Below are positions 2,855-35,321 of a stretch of DNA of 64,000 nt, piece by piece. The position numbers and the translations under genes are program-made. This DNA comes from an uncultured Bacteriovoracaceae bacterium (GTDB lineage Bacteria; Desulfobacterota; Desulfomonilia; UBA1062): contig CAZRIV010000013.1 of NCBI GenBank assembly GCA_964600235.1, positions 21,258 to 85,257 of the forward strand. Reading direction: 5' to 3'. The stretch's first letter is position 1; every line of letters begins with the position of its first letter. The notes beneath the pieces are model-generated. The model ran no database searches, was not told where the DNA came from, and worked only from the letters and a program-made list of their open reading frames with translations.

Positions 2855-5800
2855 GTGATGAATAGCACTTGTCTTGGTTCTCGTGGTTTGTCTTCGTTCA
2901 CGATAAATCGGGTGTCTCACTTCTGGAGAATATTCTTATGGGTCATTCTACTGAGTATCCCATCTGTTTCGCTGATCAACGAAGGCAGGGCCTGTCCCAC
3001 AGACCTCCAGGGGGATATCGTTTCAAACAAGGACATGCCAATGGGCGGCGAGATCGAACTGGACAGCACATTATTCAATGTGCCGGGCAATCCGCTCACC
3101 TACGAATGGTTCGGCCCTTTTCACAGGGCGACCGGCCAGAGCATGGCCGGGTTCATTCCCGAGGGCCTGTATTCCATATCCCTGATCACGTATGACGGCA
3201 TAAGCCGTTCGCTCCCATACACCCTCTACTATTCCATCGAACCTGATTTCATGGAATCTTTGTATCCCAAGGTGAACAAGGTATGTTTAAGCTGGCCCGC
3301 AATCCAGGGGGCCGACTATTATTCGGTGTACCGTTCAGAGGAGAGCAGCCCTTCCGTGTTCACAAAGATTTCCGATGTGTCGGGTTCTTTAGCCGTGTAC
3401 ATCGACTACCCCGGCAAGGAGGCCTCGTTCTGCTATGTGGTGGGCGCCTATGCCGCAGGACAGTGGCGTTATTCCAACGTAATGAGCGCCCATACAACCT
3501 TCACCAGGCCGCTGCCCGGGGTGAACTATAAACCCCTGATCTATTCCGTACCCATAGAGAAGGGCACCGCGGGCATCGAATATACCTATGACGTGAATGC
3601 AGCCGATCCCGACAAGGATGCGCTCACCTATTCCCTTGTGAACCCCGTGTCCGGCATGACGATCGATGCCCAAAAAGGGCTCATCTGCTGGGTCCCCCCA
3701 TCTCTGGGAGATTACGAGGTAACCGTCAAGGTCAGCGATGTTAAAGGAAACATCGTTTATCAGACCTTCATCATCGAGGTGGCCGAGCTGCCGCCGCTCA
3801 ACAGGAACCCGGCGGCCCATGCGGGGGGGCCTTACACCTCGGAGCTGGGCCAGGGGATATTCTTCGATGGTTCAGCCTCTTACGACCCTGACGGCGACCC
3901 GCTCACGTATGCATGGAGCTTTGGTGACGGCCTCACAGGGACCGGCGCTTCCCCCGGCCATACATACACCGCACCGGGGACGTATCCGGTCACTCTCACC
4001 GTCTCGGACTCTAAGGGTGGAACGGCATCCGACACCACAACCGCCACGGTGACCCAATGCCTGAGTCCCGCTGTTCAGCTCTCGGCAAACCCATCAGCCG
4101 TGCTGCCCGGTGATCCGTGCGCCCTGGTGTGGACATCCCAGAACGCGGCATATCTCAGTATAGACCAGGGCATCGGTACCGTCGGGGCATCCGGCACCAT
4201 CATGGTGCACCCCCAGAGCACCACGACGTATACCATCACGGCTGCCAGCCCGTGCGGATCAGCCAGTCAATCCGTCACGGTCGTGGTGAACCGGCCTCCT
4301 GCCGTGAGCATAACCGCCGTTCCCGGATCCATACTGGAGGGACAGTCGTCGCAGTTGTCCTGGACCTCCACCAATGCCGCCACCGTCACTATCGACCAGG
4401 GGATCGGCCCTGTCACTCCAAACGGCTCGCTGACCGTTACACCCGCGATCACCACAACATACACCATTACGGCCACCGGGCCGGGGGGGACGGCATCGGC
4501 ATCGGCCACGGTGAGCGTGCTTCAGGCGCCCCGGGTGAGCATGTCGGCCCAGCCGCAGAGCATTATCGAGGGTGACAGCGCAACCCTTACATGGTCGTCG
4601 GCGGATGCCGACTCGGCTTTTCTGGACAACGCCATAGGGCCGGTTCCGGTTAACGGGTCCATGACGGTCACACCTTCCCATACGACCACCTACGCCATAA
4701 CGGCCCAGGGGCCCGGCGGCACAGCCGCGACAAGCGCGACCGTCACCGTGATCCACAGGCCGACCGTGGACATCACGGCCGCACCGAACCCCGTCAATCT
4801 AGGAGGGACGACAACCCTGACCTGGAGCTCGACCAATGCCGATTCGGCCTCCATTGACCAGGGTATTGGTGATGTCGCGGCAGGCGGCTCGCTGGAGGTC
4901 GATCCCATCGAGGACACCACCTTCACCATCACAGCCACGGGGCAAGGCGGGACCGCAACGGCAAGCGTGACCGTGGAGGTGATTGCACCGCCGCTACAGA
5001 GAAATCCGTACGCCTACATCACCAACAGGGAAGGAACCGACGTGACGGTAGTGGACCTGCAGACGAATACCGTCGCAACTCAGATCGAGGTGGGGTACGG
5101 CCCCTATGGTGTCGCGGTGAGCCCCGACGGTGACACGGTCTATGTCACGAACGAAGAGAACGGGATAGCGGTCATCGATGCGACGACAAACACGCTGACC
5201 CGAAACATCCCCGTCTATGCAGCAACGATCGCAGTGAGCCCCGACGGCAAAACCCTCTATGGGGTGTCAAGTTATGAAGGCACGCTCATGAGTATCGATA
5301 CCGCCTCCGGGGCCGTGATTGGATCCGTTGAAGTGGGCCTGGACTCTTACGGCATCGCCATAAACAACGAGGGTACGCACATTTATGTGAGCTCGATCGA
5401 GAACGGCACTGTTCGGGTCATCGATGCTTCGAGCATGGCGCTGACCGCAACGGTGGCAGTCACCGAGCCTGGCGATCCGGTGTGGGACGTGGAGGTGAGC
5501 CCCTGCGGCTCAAAGGTATATGCCGTTTCATCCGGTTCATGCACTCTCACGGTGATCGACGGAACAACCAATACCGTCATTGACAGCCATTCCTATCTGC
5601 CTGAGATATCTGTTTCCCCGTGCCATATCGCGGTGAGCCCCGACGGGCAGAGGATAGGGTTGAGCGATGTCGCCGAGATGCCTCAGACGATCTATCTCAT
5701 AGACAGCCAGTCATTGGGCGTTTTAAGCCAGTTCCCCGCCGCTTCACCATCTGATCTCACCTTCAGGGCCGACGGGTCTTTCGTGTACTGTCCGGACCCC

Positions 5801-8173
5801 TCCATAAACGGGGTCTATATCGTGAATAATTGGAACCGGCAGATCGAAGGCACCATTGAAGGAGACTTCAACTACCCCAGCACCTATGGGCATTTCATAG
5901 CAGAGCACAAGGAGAGGATAACGGGCAGGGTCGTATCCGACGGGGCGGGCGTTGAAGGGGTCATTGTCTCTCTTTCGAATGAGACCATGCATATCTGCTT
6001 CACCTCCGACTCCCAGGGAAGGTACTTCTTCTATGCCCCGCCCGGCCGATACACCCTTTCATTTTCCAGCGACGGCTATATCCTGTCAAATCAAAGCCTG
6101 ACCCTCAATGTTACTGACGATGAGGTCTCCATACCTGATATCGAGGTGCTGCTGGGAGCAAGGATATGGGCCGAACCGTATGCGATCATCAATGGTGGGT
6201 CATGCATGCTGGGCTGGAGTTCAATCAAGGCTGAGAGTGTAACCATCGACCATGGTATCGGGGATGTGGGGGCAAGCGGGTCTCTGAACGTCTCTCCGAC
6301 CGAAACCACGACATACACCATTACGGCGTCCAACAGCCAGGGCAGGCCTGTCACCGACCAGACGACCATAATGGTCCACCAGCAGCCCACAGTGAGTGTC
6401 AGCGCACATCCGCAGGCTATCATCCAGGGAGATCAATTCACCTTGTCATGGACAAGCACCAATGCGGATATCGTAACGATTGAACCCCTTGGCATGGTCG
6501 CAGAAGCATCCGGCTCCTTGATGGACTCTCCCTGGCAGACCACCACCTATACTGTTACTGCGACAGGTCCTGGCGGAAGTGCCACTGCATCAGTCACGGT
6601 AACGGTGTACGAACGGCCCACTGTGACCATTTCCGTATCTCCTGCCGGTATTGACTCAGGAGATTCGGCGGTCTTACACTGGAGTTCTACCAATGCCACG
6701 GCTGTAAGCATAAACAATGGCATAGGAATAGTTGCCCCAAACGGTTCAGTCTCGGTTTCGCCCACTGAGACAACCACATATACAATTACCGCCCAAGGCG
6801 CCGGGGGTACGGCAGACGCTACTGCCACACTGACCGTATATAAATGCACCGTAACCGGCCAGATCCACGACTCCTCAGACTCACAGCCTTTACAGGATGT
6901 CAGGGTAAGCGTAAGCAATTCAGCACACTCCCTTTCAACCATGACGGATCAAAACGGCTCTTTTACCCTGAGCGGGGCTATCTGCGGCCATATATCAGTG
7001 GAGCTTGAGAAAGAAGGTTACATTACTGAAACGGTTAATCCGCCCCAGAACATTTATCCCGGGATAGATTTCATCATGAATCAACACCTGACCCCGATAT
7101 CACCAACCGTCCACATCACCGCCTCTCCCGAGACTGTTGCCGACAACCAGACATCTCTCTTGACCTGGGTATCCACATACGCGGATACCGCAGCCATAAA
7201 TCAGGGTATAGGGCCTGTAAAGGTGAATGGATCTTGTCAGGTGAGCCCCTCGGAAACCACCACCTACACGATTACCGTTACAGGTCACGGGAAAACGGCA
7301 ACATCATCCGTCACCATCAGTAAGATACCCAGCGCCATAAGCATCCACATAGAATCACCGGTAAACGGCAGCCAAATAGATCGACCCGACATCCTCGTGG
7401 AAGGTACTGTCTTGAATTTATACGGAAATGAAACAAGGGTGACTGTGAACGGTATCCCCGCTTTTGTTCAGGGAAACAATTTTTTAGTCAACCATGTTCC
7501 ACTTCAGAATGGACCCAATACCCTAGCCGTAAACGCAACAGACGAGCAGGGGAATACGACGAATACATCCATAACAATCCATGCCCAGACCGATGGTTCA
7601 TTCATCACCCTCAGACCGGATGATGCATATGGGGTCTCACCTCTCGAAACCACACTAAGTATCAGTGCACCCTTCACAACGATGAGCCCGAATCTGTTTG
7701 TAAGCGGACCAGGACCGGTCGAGTTTCTTGATGGTTCCACAACATATCAATATAATTTGAGAATGACAGTGCCGGGGGTTTACTCTTTCACTGCAGAGGT
7801 GGTTGAGGGTGATGTGACATATTCGGATACCATAAGTATTGTCGTGTCCGACCAGACAGAGGTGGATTCCTTGATCAGGTCAAAATGGGATGGGATGAAA
7901 TCCAGATTGCTGTCCAGCGACATCGAAGGAGCACTGGAGTATTTTGCACTCCCTTCACAGGAAGAGTACCGGAATATCTTTACCCGTTTGAGCAGTGAGC
8001 TTCCCTCTATAGCCATTGGCATGGAGGATATCGAACAGGTTTGCGTGAGAGGATATCTGGCGAAATACCGTATAAAGCAAGACGAGGTAATCAATGGGGT
8101 CAATTACCGTATTACCCATTATATCTACTTTGTCCAGGATGCGTATGGGCATTGGTATATTGACGGTTTCTGA
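2855..8173 (+). CDS. 1772-aa secreted/surface protein: FN3-like, He_PIG-like Ig, PKD, 8 x ~78-aa Ig-like repeats, YVTN beta-propeller, 2 carboxypeptidase-regulatory-like domains, C-terminal alpha/beta domain
   Basis: Hydrophobic signal-like segment; PKD YAWSFGDG/HTYTAPGTY; repeats ..L.WTS.NA....IDQGIG.V...GS..V.P..TTTYTITA; YAYITN/VAVSPDGDTVYVTN; ends HYIYFVQDAYGHWYIDGF. Confidence 0.85.
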   Translation: MMNSTCLGSRGLSSFTINRVSHFWRIFLWVILLSIPSVSLINEGRACPTDLQGDIVSNKDMPMGGEIELDSTLFNVPGNPLTYEWFGPFHRATGQSMAGFIPEGLYSISLITYDGISRSLPYTLYYSIEPDFMESLYPKVNKVCLSWPAIQGADYYSVYRSEESSPSVFTKISDVSGSLAVYIDYPGKEASFCYVVGAYAAGQWRYSNVMSAHTTFTRPLPGVNYKPLIYSVPIEKGTAGIEYTYDVNAADPDKDALTYSLVNPVSGMTIDAQKGLICWVPPSLGDYEVTVKVSDVKGNIVYQTFIIEVAELPPLNRNPAAHAGGPYTSELGQGIFFDGSASYDPDGDPLTYAWSFGDGLTGTGASPGHTYTAPGTYPVTLTVSDSKGGTASDTTTATVTQCLSPAVQLSANPSAVLPGDPCALVWTSQNAAYLSIDQGIGTVGASGTIMVHPQSTTTYTITAASPCGSASQSVTVVVNRPPAVSITAVPGSILEGQSSQLSWTSTNAATVTIDQGIGPVTPNGSLTVTPAITTTYTITATGPGGTASASATVSVLQAPRVSMSAQPQSIIEGDSATLTWSSADADSAFLDNAIGPVPVNGSMTVTPSHTTTYAITAQGPGGTAATSATVTVIHRPTVDITAAPNPVNLGGTTTLTWSSTNADSASIDQGIGDVAAGGSLEVDPIEDTTFTITATGQGGTATASVTVEVIAPPLQRNPYAYITNREGTDVTVVDLQTNTVATQIEVGYGPYGVAVSPDGDTVYVTNEENGIAVIDATTNTLTRNIPVYAATIAVSPDGKTLYGVSSYEGTLMSIDTASGAVIGSVEVGLDSYGIAINNEGTHIYVSSIENGTVRVIDASSMALTATVAVTEPGDPVWDVEVSPCGSKVYAVSSGSCTLTVIDGTTNTVIDSHSYLPEISVSPCHIAVSPDGQRIGLSDVAEMPQTIYLIDSQSLGVLSQFPAASPSDLTFRADGSFVYCPDPSINGVYIVNNWNRQIEGTIEGDFNYPSTYGHFIAEHKERITGRVVSDGAGVEGVIVSLSNETMHICFTSDSQGRYFFYAPPGRYTLSFSSDGYILSNQSLTLNVTDDEVSIPDIEVLLGARIWAEPYAIINGGSCMLGWSSIKAESVTIDHGIGDVGASGSLNVSPTETTTYTITASNSQGRPVTDQTTIMVHQQPTVSVSAHPQAIIQGDQFTLSWTSTNADIVTIEPLGMVAEASGSLMDSPWQTTTYTVTATGPGGSATASVTVTVYERPTVTISVSPAGIDSGDSAVLHWSSTNATAVSINNGIGIVAPNGSVSVSPTETTTYTITAQGAGGTADATATLTVYKCTVTGQIHDSSDSQPLQDVRVSVSNSAHSLSTMTDQNGSFTLSGAICGHISVELEKEGYITETVNPPQNIYPGIDFIMNQHLTPISPTVHITASPETVADNQTSLLTWVSTYADTAAINQGIGPVKVNGSCQVSPSETTTYTITVTGHGKTATSSVTISKIPSAISIHIESPVNGSQIDRPDILVEGTVLNLYGNETRVTVNGIPAFVQGNNFLVNHVPLQNGPNTLAVNATDEQGNTTNTSITIHAQTDGSFITLRPDDAYGVSPLETTLSISAPFTTMSPNLFVSGPGPVEFLDGSTTYQYNLRMTVPGVYSFTAEVVEGDVTYSDTISIVVSDQTEVDSLIRSKWDGMKSRLLSSDIEGALEYFALPSQEEYRNIFTRLSSELPSIAIGMEDIEQVCVRGYLAKYRIKQDEVINGVNYRITHYIYFVQDAYGHWYIDGF

Positions 8174-8214: not shown

Positions 8215-8838
8215 GTGAAAAGAACAGGTACCCAATCCAAGGGAAATAAACTCATCATGGTTTATATTGTTCTCGTATACCTCCTTCTCATTTACCCTGG
8301 CAGCTGCCTTGCCATGGGCGGCAACCCCGTGCCTACGGTCACGGTCATCGACGAGGAAACGGGAGAACCCATCGAGGGCGCTGTGGCCATTGCCATATGG
8401 CGGAAGCACAGCTTTAAAAGTGCATGGTTCGAAGGCGGGACTATGGTCGTGGTGAAAATCGAGGAAGCTCTTTCAGACACCAAAGGGAACATCTATATCG
8501 AAGACTTCTGGGACTGGCACTTCATCGAGGACAGATATCCCCGCCTGACCATTTACAAGCAGGGTTATGTCTGCTGGGACCAGAGAAATATTTACATTGA
8601 TGAACGACATGGGCCACGGCGGACCGACTTCGACGAGCAAAACCGCATCGCTAAAATGAGAAAATGGCCTGAAGGGTTCTCCTTCGTGGGACATAATACA
8701 TTTATTAGTTCTGTTACACACAATGATTACACTGATGCTCCCAAACAATTATTTAACAGGGCTTTTCGCTATGAGGCTCCTTTTTTTGTAAGAGAGCTTA
8801 GAGAAAGAAGTAGTAGAAAAAGGGGGGAAGTGCAATGA
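8215..8838 (+). CDS. Small secreted protein A1 (carboxypeptidase-regulatory/transthyretin-like fold suspected)
   Basis: Signal peptide ending CLA; VIDEETGEPIEGAVAIAIW...SDTKGNIYI; stop overlaps the next start (ATGA). Confidence 0.7.
   Translation: MKRTGTQSKGNKLIMVYIVLVYLLLIYPGSCLAMGGNPVPTVTVIDEETGEPIEGAVAIAIWRKHSFKSAWFEGGTMVVVKIEEALSDTKGNIYIEDFWDWHFIEDRYPRLTIYKQGYVCWDQRNIYIDERHGPRRTDFDEQNRIAKMRKWPEGFSFVGHNTFISSVTHNDYTDAPKQLFNRAFRYEAPFFVRELRERSSRKRGEVQ
8309..8694 (+). repeat. Near-identical block 1 of the tandem cassette (second copy 9683-10068)
   Basis: Offset 1374; only scattered substitutions by eye. Confidence 0.9.
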
Positions 8839-9536
8839 AACGTTTGAACGTTCTTGTTGTATTATTATGTCTAATTCTTGTTAACTATGGGTTAGCGTAT
8901 GATGACCGAACTACGCATCCACAGATTACAGAGGCTGTTATAGTCAAATCTGCACTAAATGATTATTTAATAGATTTTCTTGGTCTTCCGGGTGGTATTA
9001 AAACACCATATAATGGAACTACAATACTTACACTGCTTCAAGCCGGCAGCACGAACGAGGACCTGGACTCACGCGCGCTCAATCACTTCTGGAACCCGCT
9101 CTCTCTCACCTTCAGCCGACCCAGAAACGGGGGGCTTGATGATATCCTTATCGGTTACTCCAACAAGGACTGGGCAATGGGAGGCTTCTATGACTGCTCA
9201 ACATCAGGCGGATATGAGAGCGACTGCAGTTGCAATGACTACTCATGGAAGGTTGCCAGAAAAGAATTCTATGATGCCCTGACCTCCACCACCGAAACCA
9301 GCCGTAATGAGCACTTCAAAAAAATGTATGAAAGCCTGGGACGCATACTCCACCTCATCGAAGACATGGGCGTGCCTGCTCATACGCGTAATGACTTTGT
9401 GTACCTGTATTACAAATCCTCTTTCTCATCCCCTCAGAACCGGGGGGCAATAGTTCTTACTCCATTTTGGATTCTCGCTTCAGCAGAAATGATACAGGGA
9501 ACACATCAACTCCATCATCCAGTTTTGTGTGTATGA
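8835..9536 (+). pseudogene. Truncated protein B1 (N-terminal part of a Zn-PLC/P1-nuclease-like protein)
   Basis: Matches B2 up to HLIEDMGVPAHTRNDFV (to 9401), then diverges and stops at 233 aa versus 722 aa. Confidence 0.75.
9043..9401 (+). repeat. Near-identical block 2 of the tandem cassette (second copy 10435-10793)
   Basis: 359 bp at offset 1392; one synonymous mismatch seen (cctgct/ccagct). Confidence 0.9.
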
Positions 9537-9588
9537 AGAACAAGGATTTTTTGGAATCAGTTTATTTAATCAGTCTTAGGAGGCCAAT

Positions 9589-20759: not shown

Positions 20760-21917
20760 CTAGCCAATCCTCCTCAGTCCGTCCGCGATGCGGATCCGGA
20801 TCGCCTGCCTGATGGGGATGAGCGCAGCCACCAGGGCCACCAGGGCGGATGCCCCCAGGTCGAGCCAGATGGTTTTCGGCTCCACAAAAAAGATGGGGAA
20901 GTAGGCGGCAAGCTCGGTGGCGAAAAACCTCACCACGGGAAAGGTCAGGGCAATGCCCAGGAGGCACCCTGCCAGGGTGATCACATATGCTTCCCCTAAG
21001 ATGATAGTGCCTATCTTCCACCCGGAATAGCCGAGCGTCTTGAGCACCGCATACTCACCGATGCGCTCGCGCGTGGTCATGGCCATGGTGTTTGCCACCA
21101 CGGCCAGGATGATCACGATCACCAGAAGCGAGACCACGCGGATCACCATGACGATGGCTTCGGTCATGGAGATGAACCCCATGACAAAGGCCCTCTCGCT
21201 CTCTGTCAGGGTCTCGGCCTGGGAGTTCCTGAACATGCCGTCGATCTCGCGGGCCACCTCTGCGGAGAGGTGCGGGTCGACGACGCCGATCACATAGAAC
21301 CCCACCTGGTCGGCCATGGAGGGGTAGGCCTTCTTCACGCCCTCGTTGAGATAGTCCCAGTTGAACATGAACATGGTCTCGTCCACGGTCTTCGTCTTGC
21401 CCTCGTATATGGCCCTGAGCACGAACTCCCAGTCACCGGGGTAGATGGTTCCCTTGAGTGTCACGGTGTCGCCGATGCGCCAGCCGAAGCGTTTCACCAG
21501 CTTCCTGCCCGCTACGAAGCCCCGCCTGTCCCGGAGGAAGTCCGCCATCTGCTTCTCGGGCACCGAGATCTCGGGGTAGAGCCCCAGGTAGCTCCTGGGC
21601 TCCACGGCAAAGCTGGCGAAGAAGTTCTTCTCGCTGATGTAGATGCCGCCGAACCAGCTGCCGTATGATACGGCGCGGACGCCTGCGGTGTGCCGGATCT
21701 TGTCGTAATAGGAGATGGGCAGCGGGAAGATCAGCGACACGGAGTTACGGGTGACGAGCCGGGAGGCCGACGACGCGTCGACGCCCGAGTACCACGCCGT
21801 GAGCAGGGTGCGCAGCAGGCCGAAGGCCAGGATGGCGATGCCCATGGCGAGGATGGTAAGCCAGGTCCTTACCTTGCGCCTGAAGGCGTTCTTCATGATC
21901 ATCTTGAGCAGGATCAT
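20760..21917 (-). CDS. ABC exporter permease (MacB/FtsX-like)
   Basis: Start [15 protein letters not shown] overlaps the upstream stop (ATGA); [15 protein letters not shown]. Confidence 0.9.
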
Positions 21918-26663: not shown

Positions 26664-27649
26664 ACCCCACCGTCGTAATCCTTCATCACCCGGTGGATGA
26701 AAACTCCTCGCCAGATGATCAGGATGTCCTGGACCAGGCAGAGGCCGTTGACATCGAGCTGAAGGAAATGGGGTATGTGACCCAGATCCTGCCATTTGAT
26801 CTCGGCAAGAAGTCTTTTGCCGACAAACTGAAAAAGATAAACCCGCTGTGCGTATTCAATCTGGTGGAGTGCATCAACGGCGATGGACAGCTCATTCACC
26901 TGGCCTGTTCATACCTCGACCACCTGAAGATACCCTATACCGGTGCCGGGGCGGAGGCCATGTTCATCACCTCCAACAAGGTCCTGGCCAAAAGATGGAT
27001 GCGGCTCATGGACATACCTACCCCCGAGTGGGTGGTGCCGGGCAAGCAACTGGAGTGCGAACCACCCTTCCCGGACCAGTACATCCTGAAGGCCCAGTGG
27101 GAAGACGCATCCATAGGACTGGACGGTGATTCTGTCGTGCCAGCACGCGACATGGACGAGCTCATGGAGCTCCTGAAACAGAAAACCCTGAAGCTGGGCA
27201 AGCCGTGTTTTGCGGAACGGTACATCTACGGAAGGGAATTCAATCTTGCCCTCCTGGCGGATGCAGTTGGGGCGCAGGCCCTGCCCCCTGCGGAGATAAC
27301 CTTTGACTACGCAGCGGATATGCCGAAGATCGTGGATTACAAGGCCAAATGGATCGAAGGCTCCCCTGAATACGAGGGGACGAACCGGGTGCTGGACTTC
27401 CCCCCCGGAGACGCACCACTCCTGAAAGAGCTTAAATGCATCGCTCAGAAGTGCTGGGAGGGCTTTGACCTCAGGGGCTATGCGCGCGTGGATGTCAGGG
27501 TGGATGCCCAGAACAGGCCCTGGGTTCTGGAGATCAACGCCAACCCGTGCATCTCTCCCAACGGAGGCTTCATGGCCGCGTCCGAGAAGGCGGGAGTACC
27601 CTACCATAACATGATCGAACGCATCGTCCAGGACGCCGTCCGCAAATGA
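26660..27649 (+). CDS. Ddl-like ATP-grasp ligase 2
   Basis: VFNLVE, IPYTG, ILKAQWEDASIG, ERYIYGREFN, YARVDVRVD, LEINANP. Confidence 0.85.
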   Translation: MNPTVVILHHPVDENSSPDDQDVLDQAEAVDIELKEMGYVTQILPFDLGKKSFADKLKKINPLCVFNLVECINGDGQLIHLACSYLDHLKIPYTGAGAEAMFITSNKVLAKRWMRLMDIPTPEWVVPGKQLECEPPFPDQYILKAQWEDASIGLDGDSVVPARDMDELMELLKQKTLKLGKPCFAERYIYGREFNLALLADAVGAQALPPAEITFDYAADMPKIVDYKAKWIEGSPEYEGTNRVLDFPPGDAPLLKELKCIAQKCWEGFDLRGYARVDVRVDAQNRPWVLEINANPCISPNGGFMAASEKAGVPYHNMIERIVQDAVRK

Positions 27650-28167
27650 TACGGTGCAACTGCGCACACAAGGCACACCCGCACATGAAGTTCACCTATC
27701 GAGACCAGGTGTTCGAAAGCGATATGGAATCCGTCAGGGACATCGTCGATTCCACGGGATTCTTCACGGACGAAGAGGTCGATGTCGCCGTGGAGCTCGT
27801 TGAAGCAGGCCTCTCCGGCGGGAGCATCAGCAGTTATCTCTTCTGTTTCTGCGAAGATGAAGCCGGAAAGGTCGTGGGCTACACCTGCTACGGACCTGTC
27901 CCCTGCACCGTAGGCAGCTTCGATCTCTACTGGATAGCAGTCCATCCGGAGCACCAGGGTAAGGGAGTGGGCAGAGGGCTGTTGAAGATGACGGAGGATA
28001 AAATCCGGGCCATGGATGGCATGCGCATCTATATCGAGACCGCCTCCAGAGACCTCTACAAGCCTACGCAGGGCTTCTACGCAAACTCCGGTTACCATGC
28101 GGAGGCAACGCTCAAGGACTACTACTCCCCTGGCGACAGCAAGATAATCTATGTGAAGCACCTCTAG
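27646..28167 (+). CDS. GNAT acetyltransferase
   Basis: LYWIAVHPEHQGKGVGRGLL (acetyl-CoA motif A), FYANSGY. Confidence 0.9.
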   Translation: MIRCNCAHKAHPHMKFTYRDQVFESDMESVRDIVDSTGFFTDEEVDVAVELVEAGLSGGSISSYLFCFCEDEAGKVVGYTCYGPVPCTVGSFDLYWIAVHPEHQGKGVGRGLLKMTEDKIRAMDGMRIYIETASRDLYKPTQGFYANSGYHAEATLKDYYSPGDSKIIYVKHL

Positions 28168-28191
28168 GGGAAACCTCGCCTATGCATAAAT

Positions 28192-28408
28192 CCGGATTGT
28201 GCGCTAGGAAGTGTACACATGTACCTGATACACTTTTAAGAGTGCGTTGGCATATGGTTCGTGCCAGGCAAGATTGTTTTTCATAAGTCCGTTCAAAGCA
28301 GTGATCTCGCCGCCTCAAGCAGCCGGCATAATAGGCATTCATCGAAAAGCGGCGAGATCACTGCTTTGGACGGATCAATTTGAGACACCTTCAAACGCAA
28401 AATCCGGG
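28192..28408. repeat. Dispersed non-coding element copy A with 26-bp hairpin (arms 28288-28313 and 28349-28374)
   Basis: 53/72 ungapped identity with copy C over the first 72 nt; arms complementary except one T-G pair. Confidence 0.8.
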
Positions 28409-28430
28409 ATAAATAGTGCTGGAAAATTGG

Positions 28431-28503
28431 ACCGTTCAGATCATGAATCCTGGCATGGGCAAGCTGAATGCTTGCCCATGCCAGGATTCATGATCTGAAC
28501 GGT
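28431..28503. repeat. Perfect 34-bp inverted repeat with 5-nt loop between convergent genes
   Basis: accgttcagatcatgaatcctggcatgggcaagc-tgaat-exact reverse complement. Confidence 0.95.
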
Positions 28504-28531
28504 TATGTTTTTTTATTTGTCTATGAACGCG

Positions 28532-30070
28532 TCAGATTTCGCGCTGTTCATCCTTCATGAGCCATACGATGCGGTTGAGTGCATTGATATAGGCCTTGGC
28601 GGATGCCACCAGGATATCAGGGTGCGCTCCATGACCCGCAACGGCGCGGTTGTTGTATTTCAGCTGCACCGTGGCTTCGCCCTGGGCATCCGTGCCGCCC
28701 GTCACGGCGTTTACGGCAAATTTCATCAGGTCGTAGCCGGTCTTGGTGATCTTCTTGATTGCATCGAAGGTGGCATCCACCGGCCCGACCCCGAACCCTG
28801 CATCCTGCACGAGCTCATTGTCGATCTCGAGCTGCATGGTTGCGGTAGGGACCGCAACATTGCCGCTCACCACATTCAGGTACACGAGCTTGTACTTCTC
28901 CTCAATCCTCAATACCTCTTCATAGAGTATGGTCTCGAGATCCTCGTCGAAGATTTCCTTCTTCACGTCGGCCAGTTCCTTGAACCGTACAAAGACCCTG
29001 TTCAGCTCGTCTTCGCTCACATCGTACCCGAGCTGTTTGAGGTGCTTGGTGACCGCATGCCTTCCTGAATGCTTCCCGAGAACGATATGGCTGTCGGGCA
29101 TGCCCACCGATTGCGGGGTCATGATCTCGTAGGTGAGCTTTTCCTTGATAAGGCCGTCCTGGTGGATGCCCGATTCATGGGCAAAGGCATTGGCGCCTAC
29201 AATGGCCTTGTTGGGCTGGACACGCACGCCTGTTATCTGGGTGAGCAGCCGGGAAGTCTGGTAAATGTTCTCGGTCTTGATGCCGGTATACAGCCCGAAC
29301 AGATCCTTACGGGTAGCGATGGCCATGACGACCTCTTCCATGGCGGCATTCCCGGCCCGTTCGCCGATTCCGTTTATGGTACATTCAACCTGGCGTGCAC
29401 CGTTGCGAAGCGCTGCCAGAGAATTGGCAACCGCCAGCCCCAGATCGTTGTGGCAGTGCACGGCGATGACCGCCTGGCTTATATTCTTAACCTTTGCAAA
29501 CAGATATGCGATCAACGCACCGAACTCGTCAGGGATGGCGTACCCCACCGTATCGGGTATGTTGACCGTCTTTGCGCCGCATGCAATGACCGCTTCAACC
29601 ATTTCACACAGATAATCGTGATCGCTCCGGGTGGCATCCATGGGGGAGAACTCCACATTCTCCGTATAGCGGCAGGCATGCTCCACTGCGGCGCATGCCT
29701 CCTTGAGAACCTCCGCCCTTGTCTTGCGGAGCTGGTACTTCAGGTGAATGTCGGAAGATGAGATGAAGGTATGGATGCGGGGACGGGCGGCATCCTTTAT
29801 GGCCTCCCATGCCCGGTCGATGTCCTTCAGGTTTGCCCGGGCAAGCCCTGCGACCTGCGCTCCCCTTATTTCGCGGGCAATCTGTCTGACAGAAGCAAAG
29901 TCACCCTCGGAGGCCACCGGGAATCCGGCCTCGATGATATCGACACCGAGCCTCTCGAGCTGCCTGGCGAGATGGAGCTTCTCATCCAGGTTCATGCTGC
30001 ACCCCGGCGACTGCTCTCCGTCTCTGAGGGTGGTATCGAAGATAAACACTTTGTTCTGGGGATCAACCAT
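28532..30070 (-). CDS. leuA: 2-isopropylmalate synthase
   Basis: IFDTTLRDGEQSPG, HCHNDLGLAVANS, NGIGERAGN, HESGIHQDG, C-terminal regulatory domain G.GPVDA. Confidence 0.97.
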   Translation of the reverse strand: MVDPQNKVFIFDTTLRDGEQSPGCSMNLDEKLHLARQLERLGVDIIEAGFPVASEGDFASVRQIAREIRGAQVAGLARANLKDIDRAWEAIKDAARPRIHTFISSSDIHLKYQLRKTRAEVLKEACAAVEHACRYTENVEFSPMDATRSDHDYLCEMVEAVIACGAKTVNIPDTVGYAIPDEFGALIAYLFAKVKNISQAVIAVHCHNDLGLAVANSLAALRNGARQVECTINGIGERAGNAAMEEVVMAIATRKDLFGLYTGIKTENIYQTSRLLTQITGVRVQPNKAIVGANAFAHESGIHQDGLIKEKLTYEIMTPQSVGMPDSHIVLGKHSGRHAVTKHLKQLGYDVSEDELNRVFVRFKELADVKKEIFDEDLETILYEEVLRIEEKYKLVYLNVVSGNVAVPTATMQLEIDNELVQDAGFGVGPVDATFDAIKKITKTGYDLMKFAVNAVTGGTDAQGEATVQLKYNNRAVAGHGAHPDILVASAKAYINALNRIVWLMKDEQREI

Positions 30071-30087
30071 TTCTTTCTCCTTTCATT

Positions 30088-30126
30088 AAAAATAAAAAGG
30101 CCATGGACTTATCGCCCATGGCCTTT
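30088..30126 (-). terminator. Attenuator terminator upstream of leuA
   Basis: AAAGGCCATGG-9 nt-CCATGGCCTTT followed by TTATTTTT on the minus strand. Confidence 0.9.
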
Positions 30127-30150
30127 AGGTTCTCGTCTTGTTCTTTTATA

Positions 30151-30240
30151 CTATGGACAACCTAAAAACAATGGGCGTCTGCCTATAGTGTTAAGGCATA
30201 GGAGGAGGAGTGCAAGATTTACTGTCTCGATAACGATCAT
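30151..30240 (-). CDS. Leucine-rich leader peptide (29 aa) of leuA attenuator
   Basis: MIVIETVNLALLLLCLNTIGRRPLFLGCP*, 8 Leu with a run of 4; RBS GGAGAGG; not in the ORF track (<60 aa). Confidence 0.85.
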   Translation of the reverse strand: MIVIETVNLALLLLCLNTIGRRPLFLGCP

Positions 30241-30511
30241 ATTTACTATTCCTCTCCCTATCACCGTGCAATAAAGAACTATTATCCACTATTTGAATGA
30301 GAACATCGGGCATGTCAAGCGAGAATCACGATTAAGAGATCCTTGCATAACTCCATGCTCCCTGTTGAGCTGCACAAAGAAGCTGGCCTCCTGCTGCATT
30401 CCTTACAGCCCTTCGTTGCGTTCATCACTCGAGCATGACCATTGTGCAGGGATCTCTCCATATGACTTTATGCTTGACTGCGCATGTGACTGGGCTCTAG
30501 AAAACCATCTC

Positions 30512-31075
30512 ATGACCGGGGTCGTACTCATAGGCGGCAGGTCCAGGCGATTCGGTAGCGACAAGGTCCTCTCCGGATTCAAGGGCAAGCCGCTCATCAA
30601 ACATGTGATTGAAACCATCAGCCCGCTTTTCGATGAAACCATCCTTATAGGTCATAGACGCAAAGGCCTGGACGAGTACAGGGTTGTTGAAGATATCAGG
30701 CCGGGGTGCGGCCCGCTTGGTGGTATTTATACGGCCCTGAACGCTGCAACCTCGGATTACTGCTTTGTCTGCGCTGCGGATATGCTCCGGCTCAATCGCG
30801 AATTCATCTCCCACATGATCACCCTGGCGGATGCCCACGACATCATCATGCCCATGTGGTCCAAAGGCAGGGAGCCGCTCCATGCCATTTACCGAAAGAC
30901 GGTCATTCCTTACGCCGCAGCGCTTCTGGAACAGGAGGATTTCAAAATTTACTCGCTTATCCAGAAGGTGGATACCCTGATAATCCCTGAAGAAACCATA
31001 CGGGCCTACGGCGATCCCGAGGTCTTGTTTTCAAACGTGAACACCATGGGCGACCTTCTGCAAATTAATACCTAA
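30512..31075 (+). CDS. mobA: Molybdenum cofactor guanylyltransferase
   Basis: VLIGGRSRRFGSDK, GPLGGIYTAL, CAADM, EPLHAIY, NVNT. Confidence 0.9.
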   Translation: MTGVVLIGGRSRRFGSDKVLSGFKGKPLIKHVIETISPLFDETILIGHRRKGLDEYRVVEDIRPGCGPLGGIYTALNAATSDYCFVCAADMLRLNREFISHMITLADAHDIIMPMWSKGREPLHAIYRKTVIPYAAALLEQEDFKIYSLIQKVDTLIIPEETIRAYGDPEVLFSNVNTMGDLLQINT

Positions 31076-31154
31076 CCCATCATCTTATCAGGCATAATAT
31101 CCGTCAATCCCATACCCTTTGAAAACCATTGCCCCCTTGTGCTATAGGTGGCCC

Positions 31155-32033
31155 ATGGAACGCAGTCGGTTACGGCAGAGCATGTACGAACTCATCCACA
31201 AGACTTGTACCGTCCTGCCCCGGGACATCACGGATGCCATTGAAAAGGCCGTATCAAGGGAAAAGGCAGGATCCGTAGCGTGCGAGACCCTTGATGTCAT
31301 CATGCAGAGTGCATCCCTTTCACAAAAAAAACGCCTTCCCGTCTGCCAGGATACAGGGGCACCCCTGATCATCGTGGAGGGTCGCCCTGATATGTCGGTC
31401 TTTCTCATAAACGAAGCCGTCGTGGATGCCATGAGGGCTCTCACTGAAGAAGGCCTTCTCAGACAGAACTGCGTAGATCCGCTCACCGAAAAGAACACCC
31501 TGGACAATACCGGCAGGTACGTCCCACAGATTCATTATGAACCTTTTGATGGCCCTGTGCGGATTCATGCCATGCTTAAGGGCGGGGGATCGGAAAACGT
31601 GAGCACCCAGTATGCCCTTCCCCTGGAACGGATCGAGGCACAAAGGGATATGGACGGGGTGAGACGATGCATACTGGATGCCGTTTTCCAGGCCCAGGGC
31701 AAGGGCTGTGCCCCCGGGATTATCGGTGTATGTATAGGAGGAGACCGGGCTTCCGGTTATCTGGTGGCGAAAAGACAGCTTTTCCGTACTCTTGGTGATA
31801 CGAATCCTGAACCTGTTCTGGCATTTTTGGAGCAGACCATACTTGAGGAGTCAAACACCCTGGGCATAGGGCCCATGGGCCTGGGCGGCAACACGACGCT
31901 GCTGGGCGTAAAAATCGGCTCTGCAGGAAGACACCCGGCAAGCTATTTCGTAACAGTGAGCTACTCATGCTGGGCCACCAGACGTTACGCCGTGGAACTG
32001 ACCAATGAGGGAGACATCCGGGAATGGATCTGA
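31155..32033 (+). CDS. Fe-S hydro-lyase (fumarate hydratase/tartrate dehydratase) alpha subunit
   Basis: PVCQDTG, LKGGGSEN, GKGCAPG, IGPMGLGG, RHPAS. Confidence 0.9.
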   Translation: MERSRLRQSMYELIHKTCTVLPRDITDAIEKAVSREKAGSVACETLDVIMQSASLSQKKRLPVCQDTGAPLIIVEGRPDMSVFLINEAVVDAMRALTEEGLLRQNCVDPLTEKNTLDNTGRYVPQIHYEPFDGPVRIHAMLKGGGSENVSTQYALPLERIEAQRDMDGVRRCILDAVFQAQGKGCAPGIIGVCIGGDRASGYLVAKRQLFRTLGDTNPEPVLAFLEQTILEESNTLGIGPMGLGGNTTLLGVKIGSAGRHPASYFVTVSYSCWATRRYAVELTNEGDIREWI

Positions 32034-32623
32034 AGCACATCACCTCTCCCATGGAGCCTGATGTCGTCAAACGCCTCTCAGCAGGCGATATGGTGAGCCT
32101 CTCGGGCCGGGTCGTCACAGGCCGCGATCAGGTGCACAAATACCTTGCCGAAGGGGGAGAATCGCCCATAAACCTTGAAGGCCTTGTAATCTACCATTGC
32201 GGACCTGTCGTGATAGAGGAAAACGGAAAATGGAAGATCGTGGCGGCAGGGCCTACTACATCCATACGGGAAGAACCTTATGAAGCGGATATCATCTCAC
32301 GCTTCAAACCCGCGGCCATTATGGGCAAAGGCGGCATGGGAGAGAAGTCGCTTCGTGCCATGTCCGAGCACACCTGCATATATCTCCATGCCACCGGAGG
32401 AGCCGCCCAGTACCTGGCAGAGCGCATTATCCAGGTTGAAGAGGTCCATCTGAGCGAATTCGGACAACCTGAAGCCATGTGGGTCCTTACCGTGAAGAAT
32501 CTGCCGGCACTGGTGACCATGGACGCCCACGGCAGGTCGCTCCACAAGAACATGGCGGATGAATCATACAGACGGCTCGAAGAGTTGTTCAACCGATCAA
32601 TCAGGAAAGACGGTCTCACGTGA
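32024..32623 (+). CDS. Fe-S hydro-lyase beta subunit
   Basis: TGRDQVH, IYHCGP, GPTTSIRE, MGKGGMG, VTMDAHG. Confidence 0.9.
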   Translation: MDLKHITSPMEPDVVKRLSAGDMVSLSGRVVTGRDQVHKYLAEGGESPINLEGLVIYHCGPVVIEENGKWKIVAAGPTTSIREEPYEADIISRFKPAAIMGKGGMGEKSLRAMSEHTCIYLHATGGAAQYLAERIIQVEEVHLSEFGQPEAMWVLTVKNLPALVTMDAHGRSLHKNMADESYRRLEELFNRSIRKDGLT

Positions 32624-32653
32624 CATATACAAACCACCACAGGAGGTAGTTCA

Positions 32654-33439
32654 ATGAACGTTCAAGAGATGTTTGATCTGAAGGGCAAGGTTGCCATCAT
32701 CACCGGTGGCGGCAGGGGCATCGGTAGATTCATAGCTCAGGGGCTTGCAGAGGCGGGCGCCAACGTAGTGATCGCATCGAGAAAAGTGGCCAATTGCGAG
32801 AAGGCCGCCCAGGAGCTCGGCAAACTCGGGGTAAAAACACTGGCACTGAAGTGCGATACCGGTTCAGAGGAAGATATTACGAGCCTGGTGGATGCCACCA
32901 TGAAGGAGTTCGGCAAGATCGACATCCTGGTGAATAATGCAGGCATAACCTGGGGTGCCCCCACACTGGAGTTTCCCCTGGACAAATGGGACAAGATCTT
33001 TGATGTAAATGTAAGAGGTGTCTGGTATCTCACCCAGAAGGTGGCCAACATCATGAAGGAAAAGGGCGGCGGAAAAATCATCAATATATCATCCATTTTC
33101 GGGTCCCGCGGCTCCATCGAAGAAGGCCACCCGGCCGTTGCATACAACTCATCCAAGGCAGCCATCGAGGTGCTTACCAAAAACCTCGCAGTGAAACTCT
33201 CGCGCTATAACATCAACATCAATTGCATAGCACCCGGGTTCTTCCGTACAGACATGATGGAATACATATTCAAACCCGACATGAAGCCGATACTCGATCT
33301 CACCGTAGCCCAGATACCACTGCTCAGATATGGAGAAGAGGATCATGTAAAGGGTCTTGCCGTATTTCTTGCATCCAAGGCATCGGATTTCATGACCGGG
33401 GCCATCATCCCCTTGGACGGCGGTATGGCAGCAAAGTAA
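32654..33439 (+). CDS. Short-chain dehydrogenase/reductase
   Basis: TGGGRGIG, NNAG, YNSSK (YxxxK). Confidence 0.95.
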   Translation: MNVQEMFDLKGKVAIITGGGRGIGRFIAQGLAEAGANVVIASRKVANCEKAAQELGKLGVKTLALKCDTGSEEDITSLVDATMKEFGKIDILVNNAGITWGAPTLEFPLDKWDKIFDVNVRGVWYLTQKVANIMKEKGGGKIINISSIFGSRGSIEEGHPAVAYNSSKAAIEVLTKNLAVKLSRYNININCIAPGFFRTDMMEYIFKPDMKPILDLTVAQIPLLRYGEEDHVKGLAVFLASKASDFMTGAIIPLDGGMAAK

Positions 33440-33486
33440 TGCGGAATGACAAACTTTTGAATCTCTAAAAGAACCTCATAAAAAAA

Positions 33487-33520
33487 CTTGTGAAGAGGGC
33501 TCAAAAGCCCTCTTCACAAG
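33487..33520. terminator. 15-bp perfect hairpin between convergent genes
   Basis: cttgtgaagagggct-caaa-agccctcttcacaag. Confidence 0.8.
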
Positions 33521-33594
33521 CCGCTGAAGAAGAGAGTAACGGGGGGTGTCGAACCATACTGGCATGGGATTACCCCCCTGTAGGGTTGGCGTTT

Positions 33595-33903
33595 TTAAAC
33601 AACAATCACTGAATTATCCGCGCCTCCATACTGGGAATAGGTGTACTTGTCTGCGCTGCAGTCATTCTCCCAGATTTCCTCGTCGAGAAGATAACGGAAC
33701 TGGTATTCGCTGCCACAGGAGAGGTTCATTGTTGCAGAGAAAGATCCGTCTTTTGATTTCTTCATGGGCGTGGCACCCACCTCCCAGCCATTGAAATCCC
33801 CGACTATGCATGCTGAAATGGCTGTTTTTGCTATATCGCCCGGCAAAGAAAACGTCACCTTGCATACATCCCTGTTTTTCACATACATCTTTCTGATTCC
33901 CAT
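33595..33903 (-). CDS. Isoamylase early-set / CBM48-like small protein
   Basis: RBS aaggagg before ATG 33903; IVGDFNGW, YQFRYLLD..WEND..AD, DNSVIVV. Confidence 0.85.
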   Translation of the reverse strand: MGIRKMYVKNRDVCKVTFSLPGDIAKTAISACIVGDFNGWEVGATPMKKSKDGSFSATMNLSCGSEYQFRYLLDEEIWENDCSADKYTYSQYGGADNSVIVV

Positions 33904-34116
33904 GGGATCCGCCTCCTTATTAAAATGAGTTGTACAGACATAATAACCGCTTGCTCCCTTTTTACAGTTTCCTCTAGAAATTTCTATGGTTAAAGTTGAT
34001 AGATTATTGACAGGAAAATGATGATCATTCACTCCCGGATTCTGTAAATGAATGCCCGGCACGTTCCGGCAGGTCTCAAGCACAGGGTTCAAGGTGACCA
34101 TGAAACTGTTCTCACC

Positions 34117-34338
34117 CCGGATTGTACATTTGTTCGTTTCCATACACACTCGATACCCTTTCAAGGATGCATGAAACGGATAATTCCTATGGTTAACGGG
34201 TTCGTTTTTTATAGGTCCGTTAAAGCCGGTGATCTTAAAGCCACCCAATGGCCGACACATTCAGCATTCCTCAAAGGCTTTAAGATCACCGGCTTTAACG
34301 GATCAAGTCTTCACACCCCTTCGATCACAAGATCCGGG
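34117..34338. repeat. Dispersed non-coding element copy B with perfect 27-bp hairpin (arms 34216-34242 and 34276-34302)
   Basis: tccgttaaagccggtgatcttaaagcc and its exact reverse complement 33 nt later; flanks align to copies A and C. Confidence 0.85.
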
Positions 34339-34427
34339 TTCAACAGGTCCGTTCAATGCCACCACCAAAGCAATCTTACATTCCCCCAGAAATCGGGCTC
34401 TGGGCAGAACTTGCTGTGGACGTTACC

Positions 34428-35321
34428 CTAGAAACAAAAACGGAATATGCGTTTCCTTATCTGAGCGGCCTTTTCCGACGCGGACCTGTACCCTGCCTCC
34501 ACAAACACGTCAAAGTGGTCGAAGTCGGACCATGGGTACGAACCTACATCCGGCCTGATTAGACAATCAAGATCTTTTGAGATGTATACGTTCATAAACT
34601 CTTTGGATATGTCAAAGCTGCGAAATACTACATCCATGCTGTGATGGATGTCTGCATCTTCATCAATAGGGTCAATGCTTCTGGAAACATCCACACCGAT
34701 CATGAGGTCCGGGTTGAAGGTCTTGGCCGTGTAGCAAGGTATCATCTCTGCAACACCTCCATCCACAAGCAGCATTCCGTGCAATCTCACCGGGGGGAAA
34801 AAGCCGGGGGTGGCACAACTCGCAGTAAGTGCCGTATGGAGGTCACCTTCCGTGAAAATGATGGGGTCTCCTGTTACGAGATCAACGCTCGTGCATTTAA
34901 AGGGCAATTTAAGGTCGGAAAACTTCTTGTCTCCCACGAGATACTTCATGTGAACCACAAAGTCCTCAGGAGTAATAAAGGACTTGTTCCATAATGCCCT
35001 GGTATAAAAGTACCCCTGCTTTATGGTTGACTGTATCTTCTCGAAAAACGATCGGGACTTATCCGCCTCGGGCAACTCCATATCGCGCATGGTCTCCTGG
35101 AAAAGCGGGGAAGCCATGTAGGTCCTGAGCCTCGCCTCTACCTCGTCGATATCCAGATAGAGGCTGTAGAGTGCCCCGACGATGGATCCGAAAGAAATCC
35201 CTGCGATGCAGTCGATGGGAATTCCGGCCTCCTTCAATGCCCGGATAACCCCGATATGGGCAAGACCACGCGACCCCCCCGCACCAAGGGCCAGGGCTAC
35301 TCTCTTTTTCTTTCTCAGCAT
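34428..35321 (-). CDS. Patatin-like phospholipase
   Basis: GAGGSRG, GISFG (GxSxG), DGG. Confidence 0.92.
   Translation of the reverse strand: MLRKKKRVALALGAGGSRGLAHIGVIRALKEAGIPIDCIAGISFGSIVGALYSLYLDIDEVEARLRTYMASPLFQETMRDMELPEADKSRSFFEKIQSTIKQGYFYTRALWNKSFITPEDFVVHMKYLVGDKKFSDLKLPFKCTSVDLVTGDPIIFTEGDLHTALTASCATPGFFPPVRLHGMLLVDGGVAEMIPCYTAKTFNPDLMIGVDVSRSIDPIDEDADIHHSMDVVFRSFDISKEFMNVYISKDLDCLIRPDVGSYPWSDFDHFDVFVEAGYRSASEKAAQIRKRIFRFCF

Follow-up and report, generated by a model that had tools for sequence, protein, structure and literature searches.

The question raised by the window, meaning the whole 64,000-nt stretch of DNA analysed (positions 21,258 to 85,257 of contig CAZRIV010000013.1, from an uncultured Bacteriovoracaceae bacterium), is the nature of a ~220-bp non-coding repeat with a long central hairpin. 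A preliminary description had left it either as an unrecognised structured non-coding RNA (ncRNA) or as a non-autonomous mobile element. The repeat is, with high probability, a miniature inverted-repeat transposable element (MITE), a non-coding and non-autonomous DNA transposon of ~220 bp that belongs to the IS1380 family of insertion sequences (IS). The MITE family is previously undescribed, and the kind of element is well known. Labels starting with L (L003, L132, etc.) designate the genome and metagenome loci compared with the window.

Three copies, A, B and C, were found in the window with an nhmmer profile of the three (+ strand matches at 28171-28429, 34095-34359 and 61931-62190, E 1e-75 to 1e-78), and no other comparable match was found there with this profile. 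The three same-strand copies of ~220 bp noticed in the preliminary description are thus real and far beyond chance; A and C show 70% identity over 98 nt, ungapped, in a repeat search of the window. The limits first given (28192-28408, 34117-34338 and 61952-62160) place the copies roughly and are replaced by those in Table 1; the terminal inverted repeats and the target-site duplications had both been omitted, and an older, truncated fourth copy, D, had been missed. When B and one copy of its duplication are excised in silico, the flanks, once joined, align with positions 2-112 of the profile (E 2.6e-8, for a short sequence); therefore B is inserted into D and the window contains four copies. 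The insertion point of B in D is a TTTAAA-like site just 5' of the D hairpin, which suggests that the element carries its own preferred target. Copies range from 210 to 226 bp, and an alignment of 19 of them (236 columns) gives a consensus element of ~220 bp with this order: left inverted repeat, left module of ~88 nt, 29-bp stem with a loop of ~36 nt, second arm, right module of ~22 nt and right inverted repeat. No frame remains open in all 19 copies, in agreement with the earlier statement that no open reading frame (ORF) is conserved.

The MITE shows terminal inverted repeats of 16-20 bp, with consensus CCCAGATTTTGCGTTTGA and beginning CCC(A/G)GATT, and in every copy the 3' end repeats the 5' end as its reverse complement. 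Over the 19 copies, columns 1-16 pair with columns 221-236 in 80%. The left end of B is CCCGGATTGTACATTTG and that of C is CCCAGATTGTACGTTTG. A scan of the window with the end consensus gives three matches, among them the right end of A on the - strand, versus 0.12 expected by chance. The target is 5 bp, AT-rich and approximately WTAAR: four copies show perfect duplications, A (ATAAA), L084 (ATAAG), L098b (TTAAA) and L086b (ATTAG), and four show a 4/5 match, C (TTAAA / TTAGA), L091a, L090 and L086a, while the flanks of B (CTCAC / TTCAA) match in 3/5.

These ends are those of an IS1380-family element. A 17-nt end scan of genome contigs gave the decisive evidence, L132, a 1,624-bp IS in a Verrucomicrobia metagenome-assembled genome (MAG); its left end, CCCAGATTTTGCGTTTGAAT, agrees with the MITE consensus in 20/20 nt. 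On the opposite strand, the right end of L132 is CCCGGATTTTGCATTTGA, which agrees with that of A in 16/17 positions, and the flanks of this IS are TTTAA/TTTAA. The 471-aa transposase of L132 scores 186.3 bits against the NCBIfam equivalog NF033539, 'IS1380 family transposase' (cut-off 180), and shows 926 relatives at E<=1e-30, with PF13701 in 120/120 among the matches listed. Two elements that encode relatives of this transposase, L220 and L221, have ends starting CCCAGATTGTGCA and CCCAGATAATGCA, and L221 has a TTTAA duplication. On plasmid pC15-1a, ISEcp1, the best-known member of the family, shows the left end CCTAGATTCTACGT and the right end CCTAAATTCCACGT (opposite strand), and the left end of copy C is identical to the former in 12/14 positions. 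Three more annotated IS1380 members start CCCACATT, CCTGAATT and CCTGAATA, with CCTGAAT among such starts, and the end signature CCYRNATT is common to the MITE, ISEcp1, an ISKpn23-like element, IS1678, L220 and L221. The 5-bp duplication of the MITE is also that of L132, L221, ISEcp1, which makes AT-rich ones such as TAATA and TAAGA (PMC6061673), and IS1247, a family member with a 16-bp inverted repeat (PMC3281130).

The identity of the MITE ends with those of a bona fide IS1380-family IS points to an IS1380-family transposase as the enzyme that would mobilise it in trans. In the proposed mechanism, a DDE transposase of this family, encoded elsewhere in the genome or once encoded there, would bind the ends and move the MITE, and its gene would be flanked by CCCAGATT... 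ends. With about even odds, the MITE is an internal-deletion derivative of a parent IS and has retained from it both ends, the hairpin-bearing leader and a few initial codons. The preliminary proposal of a mobile or REP-like (repetitive extragenic palindromic) element served by an enzyme encoded elsewhere is right as to a mobile, non-autonomous element; the enzyme class would be IS1380 DDE, not HUH/RAYT, IS200/605, IS91 or IS110.

Empty and nested sites show the element as an insertion. The gap between the GNAT acetyltransferase gene and leuA, which contains copy A, measures 364 bp in the window versus ~30 bp in L005, L003, L017 and L023, and the site in these four relatives carries a single TAAAT (L005: TGATAAATCTTATTTGTCT). 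This is the empty site of copy A, so that the search for empty sites proposed in the preliminary description gave a positive result in four related genomes. Likewise, neither L005 nor the window (31045-31104) has the copy of L003 at the orthologous site. In a metagenome contig, L086b has inserted into another copy's loop and is flanked by an ATTAG duplication, which is unambiguous because the uninterrupted loop, AAAATTAGCATTCC, is known from sibling copies. A degenerate 33-nt left-end pattern found two GTDB genomes (L003/L083 and L084) and 14 metagenome contigs, with MITE copies only, and nhmmer on those contigs gave ~20 copies in both orientations, often two or three per contig. The repeat thus combines small non-coding size, inverted repeats, target duplication and dispersed, polymorphic copies, as a MITE does.

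The hosts are uncultured syntrophic Desulfobacterota (Syntrophales-like) and a few other MAGs. One of these, MAG SRP302447_co2_107 (L084 and L130), is labelled Bacteriovoracaceae and contains three MITE copies; its assigned phylum differs from that of the other hosts, which means that the family has spread horizontally or that the contigs are mis-binned. One other contig with the GNAT protein adjacent to A was found, and no more; it stops 73 bases past the gene, inside copy A, as expected of a repeat that breaks short-read assemblies. Among the papers listed by a literature search on MITEs in Smithella, Syntrophus or Syntrophaceae, none had the phrase 'miniature inverted'.

Table 1. Coordinates in the window of the MITE copies and their parts.
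Feature	Position	Strand	Remarks
Copy A, complete MITE, 218 bp	28191..28408	+	nhmmer E 7.7e-43 vs 19-copy profile
A, left terminal inverted repeat, TCCGGATTGTGCGCTAG	28191..28207	+	pairs with 28392-28408
A, right terminal inverted repeat, CCCGGATTTTGCGTTTG on - strand	28392..28408	-	2 mismatches to left-end consensus
A, left copy of 5-bp target-site duplication, ATAAA	28186..28190	.	gcATAAA/TCCGG junction
A, right copy of 5-bp target-site duplication, ATAAA	28409..28413	.	CCGGG/ATAAAtag junction
A, central hairpin, 26-bp stem, 35-nt loop	28288..28374	.	arms 28288-28313 / 28349-28374, 96% complementary
Copy B, complete MITE, 223 bp, nested in copy D	34116..34338	+	nhmmer E 1.3e-46 vs 19-copy profile
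B, central hairpin, 27-bp perfect stem, 33-nt loop	34216..34302	.	arms 34216-34242 / 34276-34302, 100% complementary
Copy C, full-length but decayed MITE, 226 bp	61951..62176	+	nhmmer E 1.9e-41 vs 19-copy profile
C, hairpin remnant	62050..62140	.	13/29 pairs mismatched
Copy D, left part of older decayed MITE, left end CCGGATTCTGTAAATGAATG, split by B	34035..34115	+	weak direct profile match
Copy D, part beyond B, AGGTCCGTTCAATGCC = base of D's hairpin 5' arm	34344..34361	+	19-copy profile; remainder of D lost

Several observations weigh against an IS1380-family MITE. Matching duplications are absent in B, L003, L087, L089 and L092, as would fit old copies or copies that have recombined with each other. 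Neither the window nor any contig that bears the MITE contains a gene for an IS1380 transposase, and in a tblastn search of the window and all 220 loci with four IS1380 transposases L132 was the sole match. L132, the only autonomous element with identical ends among the matches listed, comes from a Verrucomicrobia MAG and not from the host lineage, and the putative mobility in trans is drawn from the identity of the ends to those of an autonomous IS. Finally, no IS with the MITE interior (left module and hairpin), that is, no parent with subterminal or interior MITE sequence, was found with the 33-nt left-end pattern in the genome and metagenome collections, which gave MITE copies only. The similarity of the MITE to the L132, L220 and L221 elements ends at the inverted repeat. 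The parent IS of a MITE is often not found, and such failure does not exclude one. L220 and L221 were considered as parents since the N-termini of their transposases (MKHF...) vaguely resemble a relic ORF of the MITE (MKVFNGS...), and were rejected, as only the end signature and the leader-hairpin design are in common.

Most of the matches listed from the 17-nt end scan are chance. The 17-mer CCCAGATTTTGCGTTTR in L103, L112, L121, L140, L143, L144, L145 and L177 lies in a conserved protein-coding gene of Smithella/Smithellaceae MAGs and one unclassified delta-proteobacterial MAG (L121); it is coincidental and does not mark an element, a warning not to probe with the end by itself. The same scan shows two other MITE families among the matches listed: L113/L154/L165/L170, in MAG binchicken_co334_234, and L167, in a Deltaproteobacteria MAG. 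Both measure ~190-210 bp, contain an internal hairpin and have the 17-nt end of the present MITE (CCCAGATTTTGCGTTTG), with ...GCAAAATCTGGG on the right; the 5-bp duplications are perfect in L113 (TTAAA) and L170 (ATAAG), match in 4/5 in L167 and are unmatched in L165. Their interiors and hairpins are entirely different from those of the present MITE, whose nhmmer profile misses them, and they appear to be independent deletion derivatives or captures using the same transposase clade. L179 may be a further MITE type. IS1380-clade ends are common to three or more MITE families, unrelated and in different bacteria, and to autonomous Verrucomicrobia copies, which implies that one transposase with its pair of ends has spread widely by horizontal transfer.

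An inverted-repeat search returned the central hairpins of A (26 bp, one T-G) and B (27 bp, perfect) as they had been described; in length they rank second and third among the local inverted repeats of the window. Folded as a DNA single strand, A gives -32.5 kcal/mol (z -8.3 versus shuffles) and B gives z -11.4. Of the covarying hairpin reported for three copies, what stands is that A and B differ in sequence yet remain paired; the hairpin of C is decayed (z -0.63), with a fold no better than shuffles. In the 19-copy alignment, the 29 stem pairs (columns 105-133 with 170-198) are paired in 94.9% of cells, 15/29 changed on both sides, and at least nine different arm sequences are found, nearly all perfectly complementary. 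The covariation score is 0.238; shuffled controls score 0.110 +/- 0.009 and sliding the partners gives <=0.069, so that the covariation check proposed in the preliminary description came out strongly positive. RNAalifold shows the central palindrome helix and no other consensus helix.

The mismatches have a composition of their own: 16 G.T and 11 A.C cells versus 507 Watson-Crick cells, with one-sided (G.U) states rare, no strand bias and most G.T at two loop-proximal pairs of one subfamily. This is the pattern expected of a DNA palindrome kept perfect on both strands, and not the signature of an RNA on one strand. Mean pairwise identity is 0.66 in the mid-arm, which evolves as fast as the rest of the element, 0.74 in the left module, 0.94 in the stem base (GGTCCGTT / AACGGA) and 0.84 in the distal part (ATCTCGCAGCC), the last two being more conserved than their surroundings. 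The preliminary description had attributed the paired changes to selection on structure or to arm-to-arm conversion, and this alternative stands, as both causes fit the data: either structure-only selection or quasi-palindrome correction, the arm-to-arm templated repair that is an established mutational mechanism, would yield the pattern. In the mechanism proposed here, with no gene left to control, the complementarity of the arms would probably be preserved by template switching within a strand, by selection among the copies that transpose, or by the two together.

Upkeep of the hairpin is not absolute. Besides the decayed C, L097 (~1727-1860) and L087 (1318-1535) are one locus in two metagenomes, and in L097 a clean deletion between two direct repeats, TTTTTAA, has removed the whole hairpin; L097 is a natural case of slippage-type palindrome loss. 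A hairpin-arm pattern searched against the genome contigs gave a single match, an unrelated actinomycete palindrome, which shows that this collection (GTDB species representatives) does not include the source genome. The set of hairpins, with its at least nine arm sequences, one decayed copy and one deleted allele, is clean data for how long palindromes stay perfect.

The origin of the hairpin may be sought in the leader of the parent IS. The consensus of the 3' arm starts AAGG-CTGCGAG-ATG, that is, a Shine-Dalgarno (SD)-like motif, a 7-nt spacer and a start codon, and AAGG-N7-ATG is present in 12/19 copies. In every autonomous IS1380 member examined, a prominent hairpin separates the left end from the start of the transposase: that of L132 buries the GTG start, the stem GTGCTCCTTT...AAAGGAGCAC of L220 and L221 buries the SD just before the GTG start, and IS1678 has a stem of ~22 bp with a loop of ~33 nt that buries both SD and AUG. 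Burying the translation-initiation signals on read-through transcripts is a classical IS control, and in the parent the leader hairpin should limit translation of the transposase from such transcripts. Because AAGG-N7-ATG lies in the 3' arm and similar start-burying hairpins occur in IS1380 leaders, the MITE hairpin may descend from the 5' leader of the parent; with this origin argued by analogy, since a parent with the MITE interior was not found, its chances are about even. Two points speak against it: all three window copies have ATC for ATG, with the partner base changed to match, and the MITE hairpin is longer and lies ~97 nt from the left end, versus 35-60 nt for the leader hairpins.

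The explanation that survives best beside a plain MITE is a domesticated one, in which the element arrived by transposition and the hairpin is now kept, by the host or by the element, for a function, either as an RNA stem that is cut by RNase III or that acts on adjacent transcripts by stabilising or terminating them, or as a transposition site in cis. Such RNA-stem roles are described for Correia, ERIC and REP elements. This explanation is compatible with a MITE of the IS1380 family, to which it adds a function, and it is unlikely. It draws on the complementarity of the arms in spite of a mid-arm that changes no more slowly than the remaining element, on the above-average conservation of the stem base and the distal part, on the location of A and C between convergent genes and on B, which has diverged ends and a 3/5 duplication yet a perfect 27-bp stem. 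Across copies, moreover, the duplications mismatch much more often than the stem pairs. Both B and this contrast hint at maintenance of the stem after insertion, but recombination between copies could also scramble the duplications. A function is opposed by the decay of the C hairpin, by the hairpin-deleted allele of L097 versus L087, by an orientation that is inconsistent relative to the neighbouring genes and by the near absence of G.U enrichment and of strand bias, as upkeep at the DNA level, and not selection on RNA, would give. The stem is followed by no T-run on either strand and is therefore not an intrinsic terminator, and quasi-palindrome correction gives the same pattern without any function.

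Equally doubtful is that the palindrome is actively maintained after insertion, and not just inherited from recently active masters, be it as a need in cis of this IS1380 clade, as a host RNA or DNA signal or as the natural record of an arm-to-arm conversion by which long palindromes would remain perfect during sequence drift at the neutral rate. IS1380 transposases are related to piggyBac. If active maintenance were true, B would be its type case, with diverged ends, decayed duplication and perfect stem.

A family of structured ncRNA genes, in which the repeat is a transcribed unit of ~220 nt, the hairpin a functional RNA and the copies paralogues rather than insertions, is very improbable. 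The strong covariation in one long helix, the same-strand, intergenic location of the copies in the window and the lack of a frame open across copies agree with it. None of this accounts for the ends identical to IS1380, the 5-bp duplications, the empty orthologous sites, the nested insertions, the decayed copy and the hairpin-deleted allele, nor for the two orientations on other contigs. The sole consensus structure is a palindrome whose mismatches show no strand bias, and no promoter- or terminator-like site was found inside A or B (scan of 27600-35000, counts not above shuffles). The match to a known Rfam family raised in the preliminary description is not there, with 0 matches at gathering score in the window; a permissive scan (E<=10) around A only (27900-28700) gave sub-threshold matches to generic miRNA-precursor hairpins. 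The same description had named a match to IS ends as a result that would count against its proposal, and the RNA gene fails on this point because the ends equal those of an IS1380-family IS. The element deserves annotation as a mobile element and not as an RNA gene.

Least probable of all is a REP/PATE-like palindrome moved on single-stranded DNA by an HUH enzyme (RAYT, IS200/IS605 TnpA or IS91) or recognised by an IS110-type recombinase, with the hairpin as recognition structure: a long conserved hairpin is a hallmark of HUH substrates and an IS110-family transposase gene lies beside one copy (L095 7466-8743), but the MITE has inverted repeats and duplications, both of which to our knowledge IS200/IS605 elements and REPs lack, its hairpin is central and not subterminal, no Y1/HUH gene was found among the neighbours scanned and its ends equal those of a DDE element of the IS1380 family. 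The search for adjacent HUH/RAYT, IS200/605, IS91 or IS110 genes proposed in the preliminary description gave only this L095 gene, and IS110 was rejected as driver because the L095 element is a secondary insertion, which splits the MITE cleanly where its right inverted repeat begins on the inner side. This IS110-family element (metagenome contig Ga0315275_10010375, 7380-8941) encodes a transposase with the domains DEDD_Tnp_IS110 and Transposase_20; the junction is GTTTAA[IS]AAGATGAG, and the outer flank differs from that of the sibling locus L086. Several MITE copies may carry an IS110 of this type, which, by analogy with the IS1111-type elements that target Tn21 ends, may target the end of the MITE.

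The neighbours of A, B and C are ordinary chromosomal genes: the convergent GNAT acetyltransferase gene and leuA for A, a patatin-like gene and a gene encoding a small CBM48-domain protein for B, and the MlaE permease and ferredoxin genes, also convergent, for C. The LeuA beside A shows 87-90% identity to proteins of uncultured delta-proteobacterial MAGs and 76-79% to those of Syntrophus/Syntrophaceae MAGs, which places the host among the uncultured Desulfobacterota, near Syntrophales or Desulfomonilia. The longest local inverted repeat of the window, a perfect palindrome of 34 bp around a 5-nt loop, is located 22 nt past copy A (28431-28503); it is followed by a T-run on the + strand and is missing too from the empty site of the relatives. 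It starts ACCGTTCAGATCA, ends TGATCTGAACGGT and has the frame GGNCCGTT...AACGG plus T-run in common with the MITE hairpin; no second copy was found in any fetched locus, and the profile match is weak (E 0.21). This palindrome may serve the GNAT gene and leuA as a bidirectional terminator, or may be what is left of the hairpin of a related element. Three other repeats of the window are unrelated to the MITE: a 1,772-aa ORF of ~231-nt repeat units (2855-8173, families D3 and D4), two tandem near-duplicate gene pairs (8215-10563, with 8309-8608 and 9683-9982 97% identical over 300 nt) and the duplications at 1121-2663 and 14733-15424 (78-80%, 12.5 kb apart).

An IS1380-family MITE leaves the understanding of transposons unchanged and explains a repeat that breaks short-read assemblies of uncultured syntrophic Desulfobacterota. 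Among known systems, the IS1380 elements ISEcp1, IS1247, IS1678, L132, L220 and L221 resemble the MITE in ends that start CC, in the AT-rich 5-bp duplication and in the long hairpin between the left end and the start codon, or former start codon. The MITE differs from them in the lack of a transposase gene, in its length (~220 bp versus 1.6-1.7 kb) and in its hosts, uncultured Desulfobacterota unlike those of known IS1380 members; from the members examined it differs also in an unrelated interior and in a longer hairpin (27-29 bp) with a large loop. The REP/RAYT and IS200/IS605 types were set aside, since the MITE has inverted repeats, duplications and a hairpin in central position. The Tn3-derived miniature elements known as TIMEs are non-autonomous, of ~200-300 bp, with a 5-bp duplication and Tn3-type ends of ~38 bp starting GGGG; only the duplication, the small size and the non-autonomy are in common with the MITE, whose ends are 16-20 bp and start CCC(A/G)GATT, and this type was rejected as well.

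In general design the MITE resembles Correia/NEMIS of Neisseria, ERIC/IRU of enterobacteria and RUP of pneumococcus, which are small, non-coding, multi-copy, intergenic MITEs that can fold into a long stem-loop. Correia, ERIC and RUP end in inverted repeats, are flanked by short target duplications (TA in Correia) and encode no transposase; such families are linked to other transposases, as RUP is to IS630, or to none. The MITE is like them in size, intergenic copies, inverted repeats and stem-loop, and is not known to be related to them in sequence. In Correia, ERIC and RUP the stem is usually formed by the terminal repeats, whereas in the present MITE it is a separate central palindrome that covaries independently of the ends.

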